Shown: positions 33,532 to 37,261, numbered from the stretch's first letter. The stretch: DNA of 64,000 bases from Patescibacteria group bacterium (GCA_042568575.1 JBHPIO010000004.1:26522-90521); one strand, 5' to 3'. Translations and numbers: made by a program. Notes: a model not told the origin generated them from the letters alone.

Positions 33532-35076
33532 TTAAAAGGCCTGAGAGGCAAAATATTCACCTTCTTCTCGGTAGTTCCAAAGTAGCACTGCAATATCGAG
33601 AGCATTTACGATTTCTTCTTTTGTTAAATCGCTAACATTTGTACCTTCTTCTCGGTATGAATTAAGCATTCTTGCTATGTCCAAGGCGTTTACGTAGTTG
33701 TCATCATATATATCACCTGCTGTTAATTCGAAGACGTCAGCAAATGTGAAGTCGAGTTCTACACGCTCTGTTGTTTCAAGAATTATCACATCCCTAACGA
33801 TTTTTGTATTATGAGCCTCACCATTTAGGGCGATATCGTAAGTTCCCGTCATCAATTCTCTTTGGTGCTCCTTAAGACCATATGAATCTAACGTGATAAG
33901 GTCTGTTTCTAGAGTTCCGGCACCATGTTTAAAAAAAGTTAACTGAGAATTAAGTCCTAAATTTGGTGTAGAATCGATAATTGTACGATATTCAGGTTTT
34001 CCTTTAATATCGAAAATAACCTCTACAAGAAGTTCTTCTTCACATAAAGAGCTACAACCATCGCCGTCAATTAAGTTTCCGTCGTCACATGCTTCGCCAG
34101 CATCAAGGATTCCGTCTCCACATTCAGGAAGCTCTTCTTCACAAGCAGCACTACATCCGTCGCCGTTTATGGTGTTTCCGTCATCACATTCCTCTCCAGG
34201 CTCTCTCAAGTTATTTCCGCATACTGGATCTGTGCCACCGCCACCTCCAGCTGGGGGAGGGTCAGGGTCGCCGCCACCTCCGGTATCTTCAAACTGAGTT
34301 GAGAACACAACGTCTGAATACGGACTTAATCCTTCGTTATTTAATGGATCCGGATCGTTATCCTGACTTTGAACGTCATAAAAATATGTTTCGCCTATAG
34401 TTAGGCTATTAAAAGTATGTGAATAAGTTTGTGCAGGATTGCTGCAGTCATTCCATCCGCTTTCTGCAACTGTTGCTGCTGCTGGATCTAATGCAAGGTT
34501 TTCAAGGCTTGCTCGCACGTTACAAGTTAGGTTTATTGCATCTACTCCGTCTACTACCCCGTTGTTGTCAAAGAAGATCGTATTACTAGTTCCTTCGGTG
34601 ACACCAGGTTCTGCTTGAATGTTTGGTGCGGGAAGGTTTGAGGAAGGGGTGCAGGTGGTAACTACTCCTGAGCTCTGCAAAACTCCTGCTTCTGAAGTGA
34701 GGGTGAAAATATAGGTCCAACCAATAACAAGATCGGTTATATTTGTATTAGGAGGATAAAATGAAATATCATCAGGCGTAGTGGATCCTGGAAAAGGATT
34801 AAGATCTCTTAGCGTCAAACTTACACCAGGCCCTTGAGGACCGTCGATAACTAGCGCTTGATTATCTATATTTGGGGTAACACTAGTTGTCCAGTTTAAA
34901 CCACATTCCCCCGACCCTCCTCCTATATCTGTAGCGACGAAACCCGTCGCATCTGCAGGGAGTACGGTTACTGAAACTGGAACATCGCCAACGTCTGCTT
35001 TAACTTGCAAAGCAGGCCCCAAAACGAAGGACAAAACTATTATAATGGCAATTTCGCACAAAACCCGTTTAAACAT
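33532..35076 (-). CDS. Secreted adaptor: pilin-like N-terminal strand, FN3-like domains, Cys-rich repeats, C-terminal dockerin
   Basis: Mature N-terminus [11 protein letters not shown]; duplicated dockerin loops [18 protein letters not shown] and [18 protein letters not shown]. Confidence 0.75.
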
Positions 35077-35108
35077 ATTTTATTTTGTTTTTATTCTCTA
35101 TCTCTTAT

Positions 35109-35137
35109 ATTTTACAACATTTTGAGGGAAATATCAA
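35109..35137 (-). promoter_or_regulatory. sigma70 promoter of the dockerin-cohesin pair
   Basis: TTGATA-17 bp-TAAAAT. Confidence 0.55.
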
Positions 35138-35159
35138 CCCTCTTTGGCCTATATTTCAA

Positions 35160-35189
35160 TAAAAGCCAGAAGTTAATCTCTGGCTTTTA
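35160..35189. terminator. Intrinsic terminator
   Basis: AAAAGCCAGA/TCTGGCTTTT. Confidence 0.7.
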
Positions 35190-35208
35190 TCTCTAAATTT
35201 GTACTAAT

Positions 35209-36540
35209 TTACTCCTCCATTTTTTCTAATTTCTTTTTCATTTTCGCGTATTTCGAAGCTCCCTTGTAAATACCAAAAATCACAAGACCCAAGATAATAA
35301 CGATGATTATTAATTGCCACCAACTAATTACCCAAAATGCAATACTCTGTGTTGTAGAACTTGCACCGTCATTAAATGTGAAAGTTAAATCCGCAGAATA
35401 ATAACCTAGGGCAAGTCCAGAATCCCAGACTGCTCTTTCTCCAAGGTTCATTGATCCTGCTGGCAAAAGCTTGTATCCGTCTGGATAAAGATTTACTGTT
35501 TCTTTCGGCATACCGAAGGCATTTTTGATCTCGATTGTTGCGCTTCCTGAAATCAAATTCGAACTATTGTTTATAAGGTTTCCTTCAAATTCTACCGGTA
35601 AGCTGGAATGGAATGACGAAGTGCTAAAATTCTCAATTATTACTTCTTCTGTAATTTCAAACTCTGCTTCTTCTTCGAAATTAGTAGTTTCGCCATTGAC
35701 AGCATAATAGGCTGCTAATTTAGCTTTATATTTGCCTGGTTTAATATTAAGACCACCAACTTTAGTTTTTATCTCTTTCGATATATTTGGATAGGCAGAA
35801 GACAGAGACGGGTTGAAAGGAACAACATCTTTAAAGCCTTTCGTTATAGTCTCTTCACCTACTTCCTCAGTAATTCTTATGATGTTTTCAACTTGTTCGT
35901 CGTTCTCATCATAAATTGTAATATTCCCCATAGGGGCTATAGCTATATTTCCTTCATTTGTAAATTTGGCTACAAATGACAAAACCCCGTTTTTCAACAA
36001 CTCTTCATCTGCAAAAAACTCTTCTAATTCAAGAGAAGCATTTACATCTCCTAAAACATTCACTTCAACAAGAAGAAACACTCTTCCCGAAACGCCAACA
36101 CCAACGGGTTCACCTGTATCTGTCGTTGGAACATGTTTTGTCAAAGACACTGCGGCCAGGTGTGTTCCGGGTGATGCGTCTGCAGGGATATCAAAGCCCA
36201 TCGTAACCTCTATTTGATCATTGGCTGGAACAGAAAGCGGCAAGGTTGCTCCAATTTTTACCCAAGATTCTGCACTGTAAGGAGGCTTAGGATCCTCAGG
36301 AGCTAGGAAAGTTTGATTCCCATCTTCTCTAAGAATATAACTCATTGGCACAAAATCGTACTTTTCCGGCTTTTCAGTCGGGTTGATTACGTTGATAGTT
36401 CTCTCTATAGTTTCTCCTGGATTACCCTCTACCACAACTTTTCCTGGCATTAAACCAAGAGCTGCAGCACTATTTACTAAAGTTACCCACAAAATAATTG
36501 GGAGGGCTACAACTAACATTTTTTGAAAAACTTTCATCAT
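35209..36540 (-). CDS. Membrane-anchored DUF916/PapD-like chaperone
   Basis: Signal peptide, G..P......PGE.....I.V.N, SW, IPADASPGTH.A.V, N.GN....P.G, C-terminal TM and basic tail. Confidence 0.65.
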   Translation of the reverse strand: MMKVFQKMLVVALPIILWVTLVNSAAALGLMPGKVVVEGNPGETIERTINVINPTEKPEKYDFVPMSYILREDGNQTFLAPEDPKPPYSAESWVKIGATLPLSVPANDQIEVTMGFDIPADASPGTHLAAVSLTKHVPTTDTGEPVGVGVSGRVFLLVEVNVLGDVNASLELEEFFADEELLKNGVLSFVAKFTNEGNIAIAPMGNITIYDENDEQVENIIRITEEVGEETITKGFKDVVPFNPSLSSAYPNISKEIKTKVGGLNIKPGKYKAKLAAYYAVNGETTNFEEEAEFEITEEVIIENFSTSSFHSSLPVEFEGNLINNSSNLISGSATIEIKNAFGMPKETVNLYPDGYKLLPAGSMNLGERAVWDSGLALGYYSADLTFTFNDGASSTTQSIAFWVISWWQLIIIVIILGLVIFGIYKGASKYAKMKKKLEKMEE

Positions 36541-36605
36541 TTTCGGCAGGTTAAATTATGTAATTCACAACTGATATTATACCTAACTCTATTACAAAAA
36601 TCCAT

Positions 36606-36644
36606 AAAAAAACAAGGGCGGCATATAGAGCTACCCTTGTTTTT
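36606..36644 (-). terminator. Intrinsic terminator after the major subunit gene
   Basis: AAACAAGGG/CCCTTGTTT stem with a T tract on the minus strand. Confidence 0.75.
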
Positions 36645-36661
36645 AATTTAGATTCAAAAGA

Positions 36662-37261
36662 CTATGATCCAACGATCAAGTTAAGAACCCAAGTATCAGA
36701 ATATGCTTCAGAAACCTGATCAGTATTAGTTGATACAGCCATACCTAATGTGAAATTGTCTAAGTCGTTTACATTAGTTTCGTCATCAATTGGACGACCA
36801 GTTTCAGTTGCTTGTGCTGCACAAACAGAAGTTGTACCAGTACAAGTAGCAACTGTATCACCAGCAGCAGTACTCATGTAGTATCCTACTTCAGCAGTTC
36901 CAGCAGCTGGATCTTGTCCAGTAAATACTGATCCTGGGAAATCGTCTACACCTTCAACAAAGTCAGTTGGACCGGCAATACAACCAGTTTGTGTACAACC
37001 TTCAGTACCATCATTGGTATCTGTTACGTAAACATCATGAGTACCATTAGCACTTACGATGAAGTTACAAGATGCACTAGTTTCTGCGTTTGCTCCAAGA
37101 GAAGCAACGATAAGTCCACCTGGAGTATCACACGCATCCATGTCAAGGATAACACCTGCATCTACAGTTACTGAAACAGGAACGTCTCCTGTAGCAGCGA
37201 AAGCTACAGATGAGATAGCAACCATTGCAACAAGTGCACCTAAAGCGATAAGCTTTTTCAT
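36662..37261 (-). CDS. Putative major fibre subunit (WxL/CS1-like pilin)
   Basis: Signal peptide ending AFA; N-terminal strand [12 protein letters not shown]-terminal AYSDTWVLNL; own promoter and terminator. Confidence 0.65.
   Translation of the reverse strand: MKKLIALGALVAMVAISSVAFAATGDVPVSVTVDAGVILDMDACDTPGGLIVASLGANAETSASCNFIVSANGTHDVYVTDTNDGTEGCTQTGCIAGPTDFVEGVDDFPGSVFTGQDPAAGTAEVGYYMSTAAGDTVATCTGTTSVCAAQATETGRPIDDETNVNDLDNFTLGMAVSTNTDQVSEAYSDTWVLNLIVGS

Follow-up and report, generated by a model that had tools for sequence, protein, structure and literature searches.

We describe here a putative pilus locus in a 64,000-nucleotide stretch of DNA (the window; GCA_042568575.1 JBHPIO010000004.1:26522-90521) from an uncultured Peregrinibacteria bacterium belonging to the Candidate Phyla Radiation (CPR), Patescibacteria, the assembly of which has 1,203,139 bases in 31 contigs with 38% G+C and is 82% complete. 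The locus is best explained, with a probability of about 0.62, as that of a donor-strand-exchange pilus, in which a dockerin-bearing adaptor copies the N-terminal strand of the pilin, acts as a base subunit that only donates a strand, and anchors the fibre via its dockerin. The features on which this reading depends are as follows; positions are given in the numbering of the window, and both the adaptor and the pilin genes lie on the minus strand.

36662..37261, minus strand: 199-amino-acid (aa) pilin-like protein with a signal peptide, an N-terminal strand, a single beta-rich domain in which Cys44 and Cys65 are conserved, and, at residues 180-195, a C-terminal strand (from alignment and AlphaFold2, AF2)
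37163..37189, minus strand: codons for GDVPVSVTV, pilin residues 25-33; proposed N-terminal donor strand
33532..35076, minus strand: 514-aa adaptor with a signal peptide, a donor-like strand, two fibronectin type III domains (FN3-1, residues 44-142; FN3-2, residues 159-262), two Cys-rich acidic repeats (residues ~285-348), a beta-rich domain and a C-terminal dockerin-like module
34963..34989, minus strand: codons for GDVPVSVTV, adaptor residues 30-38; proposed donor strand of an anchor/terminator subunit
33583-33720, minus strand: dockerin-like module of the adaptor, residues ~453-498
35209..36540, minus strand: 443-aa DUF916/DUF3324-like protein with a signal peptide, a C-terminal membrane helix and a Lys-rich tail; proposed membrane-anchored pilin chaperone

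The nine-residue peptide GDVPVSVTV is encoded in both the pilin and the adaptor genes, with 4 base differences in 27 that all fall at third positions, giving 4 synonymous and 0 non-synonymous changes; with 8.3 synonymous sites in 27, the probability that four random changes would all be silent is about 0.009. The DNA of the two genes is identical at 23/27 positions in this core, and at 27/90 and 28/90 positions in the upstream and downstream flanks. In both proteins the 9-mer starts at mature position 3, following A-x-A-type cleavage sites (AFA/AT... and VKA/DV..., the slash marking cleavage) that were read by eye without a signal-peptide predictor, and the two signal peptides are mutually dissimilar. 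When the pilin was compared with the adaptor by BLASTP, no similarity was found past one 12-residue segment with 10/12 identical residues, and the loose pattern [VIL]P[VIL][ST][VIL][ST][VIL] matched only the pilin and adaptor open reading frames (ORFs) in a six-frame search of the whole assembly (open frames of at least 80 codons). At the level of sequence, the identity of the strand is well beyond chance, and it is no recent gene-conversion tract. The initial annotation of this DNA had reported two stretches encoding the same 9-mer with synonymous differences only, placed just after the signal peptides of two otherwise dissimilar proteins, and all of this is borne out; the coordinates were right, and the codons are read as the reverse complement. 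That annotation had also proposed looking for co-variation of the two peptides across orthologous loci, and the N-terminal strands do co-vary in 9 further syntenic loci, as described below.

For the co-variation analysis, 10 syntenic pilin/adaptor pairs from 5 genera were available out of 13 family genomes; three genomes were left out, one with matches to the Cys-rich repeats only and no orthologue (G003), one with the adaptor N-terminus cut by a contig end (G007) and one with the pilin cut by a contig end (G011). The 10 variable residues preceding the conserved P-x-D-A-T(-x-F) of the adaptor were compared with the aligned pilin columns, and the significance was assessed with 200,000 permutations. 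Using all 10 pairs, cognate strands shared 5.1/10 residues compared with 2.9/10 for non-cognate ones, a difference reached by 3 permutations for identity and by 0 for BLOSUM62 scores. Without the discovery pair (G000), the 9 other loci gave 4.67 against 2.88, with 33 (identity) and 3 (BLOSUM62) permutations reaching these values. The adaptor of G001 was first paired with an adjacent 270-aa paralogue that had been picked after its better match was seen, and the analysis was repeated with the 208-aa paralogue, which is closer in sequence to the window pilin, and without G001; the result held. With the 208-aa paralogue, the values were 4.9 against 2.8 for all 10 pairs (4 permutations for identity and 2 for BLOSUM62) and 4.44 against 2.75 without G000 (38 and 2 permutations, respectively), and with both G000 and G001 removed they were 4.75 against 3.09 (245 and 30 permutations). 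Relatedness among the loci raises the similarity of non-cognate pairs too, so that the comparison is conservative if anything.

The excess was largest at positions 2, 4 and 7, at which 5, 6 and 8 of the 10 pairs were identical against expectations of 0.14, 0.11 and 0.30, and it had gone at position 10, where the shared element ends. For example, five loci read V/V, T/T, A/A, V/M and G/A at position 7 and the remaining five all read G/G, and at position 4 rare residues are common to the pilin and the adaptor of a single locus (P in G000, D in G008 and N in G002). Matches to the N-terminal FN3 part of the adaptor were confined to the family; 35 of 205 genomes of the order had some match to the adaptor, most of them to the Cys-rich repeats only. 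No new pair was found when metagenomes (2 loci) and genome contigs (10 loci) were scanned with the adaptor N-terminal alignment, and three loci considered as further adaptor loci (L047, L048 and L058) were rejected as unrelated FN3 or repeat matches, the remainder being loci already in the set.

The position of the shared peptide in the adaptor was examined using an AF2 model of the first 280 residues, which had a mean predicted local distance difference test score (pLDDT) of 81.8. In the model, a signal helix is followed by coil at residues 23-43 (block means of 54 and 69) and then by a pair of beta-sandwich domains (44-142 and 159-262); residues 44-50, in the conserved D-A-T-x-F segment, form the first FN3 strand. 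A Foldseek search with this model returned tandem FnIII pairs (best E 2e-8). Since residues 23-43 are coil before the first FN3 strand, the shared peptide is an N-terminal extension and not an FN3 strand; the initial annotation had named two findings that would speak against its proposal, a lack of co-variation among orthologues and membership of the adaptor's own FN3 fold, and neither was observed: the strands co-vary, and AF2 places the peptide outside both FN3 domains.

The docking of this extension was modelled using a strand-deleted pilin (residues 36-199) and adaptor residues 28-145, each with its own alignment, in three runs and with 3 controls. The interaction prediction score from aligned errors (ipSAE) was 0.74, 0.73 and 0.71 in the three runs and 0.00 for all 3 controls; the runs agreed in at least 93% of contacts, with a partner pLDDT of at least 87. 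The ipSAE mark used is reached by 116/157 solved complexes and by 2/215 mismatched pairs, counts that hold only roughly with user alignments. At the modelled interface, adaptor residues 28-41 run antiparallel to pilin residues 180-195 (191 with 32, and 184 with 38), the strand itself lying against 183-192, and also contact pilin residues 44-58, and the pLDDT of the pilin is 73-75 in this complex compared with 50-53 with unrelated partners. The modelled geometry of adaptor and pilin is that of donor-strand complementation. Taken together, the co-variation, the position of the strand outside the FN3 fold and the complex model with its controls support, in silico, the docking of the adaptor strand as a donor strand into the pilin.

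These results are consistent with the following mechanism. The 199-aa protein would be the fibre subunit, and its N-terminal strand would fill, in the next subunit, a groove between the C-terminal strand and residues 44-58. Membrane-anchored DUF916/DUF3324-like proteins would act as chaperones, and giant surface proteins ending in a pilin-like module would accept the strand at the far end of the fibre. At the other end, the adaptor would plug the open groove of the last, cell-proximal pilin and thus end growth, and its dockerin would tie the fibre to a cohesin-bearing surface protein. Having a strand but no acceptor domain, the adaptor could only donate, and the peptide would be kept constant and would co-vary with the pilin strand because both must fit the same groove. 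That the pilin polymerises, that the fibre has this polarity and that its growth is terminated are inferred from the architecture of the locus and from two precedents, the Elr and Pam systems, to which we return below.

Hardly any relatives of the pilin-like protein are detectable. It has no Pfam family (E up to 0.1) and no NCBIfam family, a word-based homologue search returned only the pilin itself among 529 candidates, and its profile matched no solved structure at E up to 10. An exhaustive HMMER search of 1.84 billion representatives found two relatives with 39% and 35% identity. In the AF2 monomer model, which had a pLDDT of 53.3, residues 27-35 were unstructured with a pLDDT below 50. Foldseek matches listed for this model were mostly chaperone-usher pilus subunits (FimA, PapE, FimG, FimI, CsuA/B, PapA and PapH), among which listed matches the best E was 2.6e-3, with a TasA fibre (8aur_A) at E 0.04 and PapH (2j2z_B) at E 0.2; since the monomer model is poor, these fold matches are leads only. 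Two further leads, and leads only, come from structural look-alikes in the Atlas (SCPU, DUF4402 and Fimbrial) and from language-model features, by which the nearest named cluster is a WxL cluster (0.93, 176 shared features). The pilin shows a V-x-V-x-V-x-V pattern at mature residues 5-11. Across genera, its signal peptide (37196-37261, minus strand; consensus MKKLxALxALVAMVAVSSVAxA) holds 6 of the 9 invariant columns and is much better kept than the mature part, for which identity to the window copy is 22-36%. Diversifying selection acting on the surface of the fibre may explain this pattern, or else some special demand made by export.

Around the pilin and adaptor genes, the gene order on the minus strand is 3258-aa, 2054-aa, 618-aa ORF, 357-aa, 199-aa, 443-aa, 514-aa and 1008-aa, and the order of pilin, chaperone, adaptor and 1008-aa protein repeats across the family; a chaperone-like gene lies between the pilin and adaptor genes in 11/11 loci holding a chaperone. 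The remaining features of the locus are listed below.

46537..56313, minus strand: 3258-aa giant protein; hydrophobic segment at the N-terminus and, at the C-terminus (46540-47199), the pilin-like module also seen in the 2054-aa protein
40365..46529, minus strand: 2054-aa giant surface protein, the last ~220 residues of which are a pilin-like module (40368-41027); candidate distal adhesin
38504..40360, minus strand: 618-aa ORF with a third chaperone-like half (residues 1 to ~330), followed in frame by a second signal-peptide-like stretch and a pilin-like half ending ...TFTLNTTP
37420..38493, minus strand: second chaperone-like protein, 357 aa, with a weak WxLIP_PGBD-like match and, at its C-terminus, a membrane helix
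37388..37416, minus strand: promoter-like site TTGACT, 17 nt spacer, TATAAT, with 11/12 matches, ~127 nt upstream of the pilin start (consensus match only)
36598..36655, minus strand: strong hairpin with a U-run behind it, immediately past the stop codon of the pilin gene; resembles a terminator or attenuator
30460..33486, minus strand: 1008-aa neighbour with a cohesin-like N-terminal domain (weak match), an Ig-like domain, a Cys-rich repeat, TSP3 repeats and a C-terminal membrane helix; candidate dockerin receptor

The hairpin at the 3' end of the pilin gene has a folding energy of -23.6 kcal/mol (z = -5.6), and 0/200 shuffles fold as well; promoter-like sites in the pilin region are no more numerous than in shuffles. 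The arrangement of a promoter-like site and a hairpin bracketing the pilin gene suggests that the pilin may be transcribed in excess over the downstream chaperone and adaptor.

The chaperone-like proteins were assigned using Pfam models. The only matches to WxLIP_PGBD (DUF916) in the genome are the 443-aa protein, the 357-aa protein and the first half of the 618-aa ORF, all of them below the cut-off, and by reading all three ORFs have a signal peptide, a C-terminal hydrophobic helix and a Lys-rich tail. The 443-aa protein scores 14.3 bits on PF06030 (cut-off 27.3), and its orthologue from the same genus (G001) passes with 34.2 bits. At E up to 1, PF06030 (WxLIP_PGBD) was found in 4/11 and PF11797 (WxLIP_HBD, DUF3324) in 6/11 of the 443-aa orthologues, in the expected order, and WxLIP_PGBD matches were found in 7/9 proteins of the second chaperone type; no protein of the 443-aa family passes the cut-offs of both PF06030 and PF11797. 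A comparison of the chaperone profile (A4) with solved structures gave nothing meaningful. With the profile of the 443-aa family and an E limit of 1e-5, relatives were found in 202 of the 401 Patescibacteria genomes sampled (165/338 of the high-quality ones), often several per genome, a tally that counts in one genome flagged as unpublished (G355). Strand-exchange fibres of this kind may thus be common among CPR bacteria.

The same chaperone profile found a more distant, same-class locus (L071; G399:C1:468000-482000, minus strand). It encodes two larger pilin-like proteins (341 aa and 486 aa) that share the C-terminal ending ...Y-T-A-[VL]-P-[ST]-F, followed by a chaperone and a 1015-aa protein that starts with a short strand and an FN3-like segment and ends in a membrane helix. 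The terminator-like N-terminus of the last protein gave no significant match to the chaperone (174/500 shuffles as good).

A conserved module with the ending ...T-L-T-T-N-P makes up the last ~220 residues of the giant proteins, as it does in their counterparts from other loci, and an hhalign comparison of these modules with the pilin profile gave a probability of 89.4% and an E of 2e-6 over 135 columns, reaching both C-termini. The giants seem to have no N-terminal strand of donor length. In the 2054-aa protein (start at 46400-46529) and its counterpart in G010 (L044 1451-7825), the signal peptide is followed by just one short strand plus a Cys (QDIVDIALTADVDTGC; 16 residues compared with 22-25 in pilins), and the C-terminal pilin-like module of both proteins holds the second conserved Cys. 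From this layout, the pilin domain in these two proteins may be split by an insertion of ~1,800 residues. In the 618-aa ORF, the chaperone-like half ends in a membrane helix and a Lys/His-rich tail, with no stop before the second signal-peptide-like stretch and the pilin-like half, unlike in a genome of the same genus (L006), in which the chaperone-like and pilin-like genes are separate; the 618-aa ORF could be a true fusion, could contain an internal start or could have lost a stop.

The C-terminus of the adaptor points to anchoring through a dockerin. Dockerin_1 matches were found in 10/11 adaptor orthologues (best E 2e-4), and the window copy, which is the only Dockerin_1 match in the assembly, scores 21.7 against a cut-off of 22.9 bits. 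When the adaptor C-terminal profile was compared with solved structures, the best match was 2b59_B from the cellulosomal scaffolding protein A (E 5e-5; query 4-78, chain 76-151), a chain which we take to be the dockerin-bearing end of the scaffoldin, and several dockerins were matched too. By reading, the second dockerin repeat of the adaptor has lost several of the usual calcium-binding residues. The adaptor has no LPxTG motif, membrane helix or hydrophobic tail, and the 1008-aa neighbour, which always adjoins it, is membrane-anchored; by language-model features, 30/30 named clusters nearest the N-terminal domain of this neighbour are cohesin clusters (0.93). We consider the membrane-anchored 1008-aa protein the most likely candidate for the partner of the dockerin. 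A protein encoded on another contig (C2:17498-19096, plus strand) is a candidate alternative partner. By eye, it is a secreted protein of ~490-530 aa with an FN3-like segment, a dockerin-like Asp-rich C-terminus and no membrane anchor.

The strand could also dock in the pilin in a different role, with the adaptor starting assembly or sitting distally, as a TapA-like seed or a cargo adaptor. TapA seeds TasA fibres with a donor strand, a TasA fibre is among the weak fold matches of the pilin model, and both the complex model and the co-variation show that the strand fits the groove, not when or where it does so. We nevertheless regard such a role as unlikely, since the giants, with an acceptor module at the C-terminus and by reading no donor-length N-terminal segment, would already hold the acceptor-only end of the fibre, and the dockerin together with the conserved membrane-anchored neighbour fits attachment to the cell; in both preprints on related systems, moreover, ElrB and PamR are placed at the base, by AlphaFold only. 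Slightly less probable still is that the strand is not inserted in the pilin and that both proteins share it as a tag by which one and the same chaperone, protease or sorting step recognises them, binding to the 443-aa protein being an example. Co-variation would be expected as well if both proteins had to fit one co-evolving receptor, and the chaperone-like gene lies between the pilin and adaptor genes in all the loci holding one. We rate this unlikely as well in view of the complex model, in which the strand occupies the pilin groove (the controls scored 0.00), and of the Elr precedent, in which the main text describes a chaperone that binds the groove and the C-terminal strand and leaves the N-terminal donor strand free (10.64898/2026.10.17.759780); as modelled, the adaptor has complete FN3 domains and would offer no open groove for a chaperone to cap.

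Two other explanations deny the peptide any role in the pilin altogether. The match could be functionless, either a short gene-conversion patch or a convergence of beta-strands rich in Val, Thr and Ser, and the mature N-termini of the family are indeed all V/T/S-rich, with non-cognate pairs already 2.9/10 identical. A patch or chance convergence is very improbable given that all 4 differences are synonymous (P ~0.009) and the identity stops sharply at 27 bases, that cognate pairs exceed non-cognate pairs in the 9 other loci (33/200,000 permutations, and 245 without G000 and G001), and that rare residues at position 4 are common to both proteins within a locus. Alternatively, the peptide could be the first strand of the adaptor's own FN3 domain: FN3 domains begin with an A-strand, and the peptide lies only ~6 residues before the modelled domain. 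With residues 23-43 modelled at lower confidence without secondary structure and the first FN3 strand at 44-50, this explanation too has very little probability. We therefore prefer the reading of the locus as a donor-strand-exchange pilus with a dockerin-bearing base subunit.

Several points weigh against this preferred reading. All of the evidence for the pilus mechanism is computational. All ten loci belong to a single family (5 genera) and so are not independent of one another, and it was the analysts' own alignments that fixed the register. The favourable score of the complex may owe something to likeness with solved complexes of chaperone-usher pilins and donor strands, the calibration of the complex tool was made without user alignments, and the model covers the pairing of adaptor and pilin only. 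The pilin monomer model is poor, none of the Foldseek matches listed for it reaches E 0.001, and no match to the WxL domain PF13731 was found anywhere in the assembly at E up to 10. The chaperones of the window itself are below the Pfam cut-offs, sub-threshold WxLIP_PGBD matches were found in 7/14 control genomes as well, and 8/11 of the 443-aa orthologues also match the generic beta-sandwich families BsuPI and NPCBM_assoc. The dockerin matches listed are all sub-threshold, and the N-terminal domain of the 1008-aa protein is only weakly cohesin-like, with Pfam Cohesin in 2/7 orthologues (best E 0.002) and, among PDB entries, a scaffoldin cohesin matched at E 0.42; of the cohesins in the assembly, just that of the protein on contig C2 clears the cut-off (56.4 bits). 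Finally, at L071 the terminator-like N-terminus showed no significant 10-mer match to either of the two pilins, with 399/500 and 353/500 shuffles as good.

Usher-less strand-exchange pili have been described only in 2026, in two preprints, and in the main texts of both the base terminator comes from AlphaFold alone (10.64898/2026.10.17.759780; PMC13278184). As the main text of Sleutel et al. (bioRxiv 10.64898/2026.10.17.759780) describes, the WxL protein ElrD of Enterococcus faecalis polymerises by an N-terminal donor strand, as established by cryo-electron microscopy and biochemistry; the donor strand lies antiparallel to the acceptor's C-terminal strand, and ElrD is primed by the membrane-anchored DUF916/DUF3324 chaperone ElrE. 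In the AlphaFold models of that study, the large protein ElrA, with a C-terminal WxL module, caps the tip, and the small LPxTG protein ElrB terminates and anchors the fibre. The system is reported there only from Bacillota, with a small Actinomycetota satellite among the chaperones, in RefSeq proteomes. From this description, ElrB resembles the adaptor in having an N-terminus in the donor-strand pattern of the pilin, no acceptor domain and a predicted place at the base as terminator and anchor, and the Elr locus resembles that of the window in having a chaperone with a C-terminal membrane helix, a DUF916/DUF3324 protein there and a DUF916/DUF3324-like one here, and large proteins ending in a pilin-type module, at the tip there and putatively so here. 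In contrast, ElrB is a 13-kDa protein fixed to the wall by sortase via LPxTG, whereas the adaptor, at 514 aa, lacks LPxTG and combines two FN3 domains with Cys-rich repeats and a dockerin, and the Elr pilin is a WxL domain of Bacillota, whereas the window pilin, from Patescibacteria, is undetected by the WxL model.

The second system, Pam, was described by Troman et al. (bioRxiv 2026.03.03.709456, PMC13278184) in the CPR bacterium Ca. Mycosynbacter amalyticus, and according to the main text two Pam pilins were solved that assemble by a donated inter-domain linker, with membrane-anchored PapD-like chaperones and no usher. PamR is described as having an additional strand at its N-terminus, two FnIII domains and, at its C-terminus, a membrane helix, and in the AlphaFold model it enters the last pilin, ends growth and tethers the fibre; the system is reported mainly from Saccharimonadia and Microgenomatia (PMC13278184). 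Compared by description only, PamR is like the adaptor in its N-terminal strand and two tandem FnIII domains, and the two systems share a CPR host, the lack of an usher and membrane-anchored chaperones; PamR has its own C-terminal membrane helix, whereas the adaptor has a dockerin and a separate membrane-anchored neighbour. The Pam pilins, as described, have two domains (38.7 and 55.3 kDa) and donate the inter-domain linker, whereas the window pilin is modelled as one domain of ~18 kDa with an N-terminal strand. The layout of L071 resembles the published Pam operon with a PamR-like anchor. The main texts of the two preprints contain no mention of the other system, of a dockerin or of Peregrinibacteria, and that of the Pam preprint no mention of DUF916 or WxL. 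In the literature on donor strands in Patescibacteria, cohesin-dockerin pairs in CPR bacteria and pili of Peregrinibacteria, judged on the entries alone, no such locus was found.

Two longer-known systems offer partial parallels. PapH donates its N-terminal strand to the last rod subunit and cannot itself be extended, and in this way it ends the growth of the P pilus at its base. The initial annotation had called the adaptor a PapH-like terminator; the part of this claim concerning the docking of the strand into the pilin is supported in silico, and the likeness to PapH is an analogy only, since PapH has a pilin fold of its own and is kept by PapD at the usher of the outer membrane, whereas the adaptor is FN3-FN3 with no pilin fold. 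No match to Usher (PF00577) or PapD_N (PF00345) was found in the assembly, which is 82% complete, at E up to 1. With no usher or PapD-type chaperone and with a pilin that is not detected as WxL, the system is therefore not filed as a member of either the chaperone-usher or the WxL group. The other parallel is the scaffoldin CipA of Clostridium thermocellum, the dockerin-bearing end of which binds the cohesins of cell-surface anchoring proteins and so holds a large extracellular assembly on the cell. The C-terminus of the adaptor is like this C-terminal end of CipA, as in the match to 2b59_B, but the cargo is a cellulosome there and would be a pilus here.

In conclusion, the adaptor is best read as a base subunit of the ElrB/PamR type, which is PamR-like in its strand and two FnIII domains, while the pilin and the chaperones are more Elr-like. 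A base subunit that only donates a strand had already been predicted with ElrB and PamR; what is new here is the dockerin in place of LPxTG or a membrane helix, and the comparative evidence for the strand match. This evidence is independent of the earlier models, in that the terminator strand tracks the pilin strand across genomes, as the proposed mechanism predicts. The locus also provides a link between the Elr and Pam systems, as its chaperones reach the DUF916/DUF3324 models in a phylum outside the reported Elr range. Further, it suggests a search rule, namely a secreted protein adjoining the chaperone with a mature N-terminus that copies that of the pilin. If the dockerin binds a cohesin, cohesin-dockerin pairs would hold surface fibres in episymbiotic CPR bacteria, for which host attachment is a central open question. 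We tentatively propose, as a possibility that we would not yet call probable, that the Bacillota Elr/WxL pili and the CPR Pam-type pili are two ends of one ancient usher-less, single-membrane family with membrane-tethered chaperones, in which the base subunit keeps only its donor strand and freely swaps its anchor among LPxTG and sortase, a membrane helix, and a dockerin inserted into a membrane-anchored cohesin. If this were true, the pilus described here would be the first held to its cell by a cohesin-dockerin joint, and the strict co-variation of anchor and pilin strands would provide a rule by which the base subunit in any pilus of this kind could be recognised from sequence alone.

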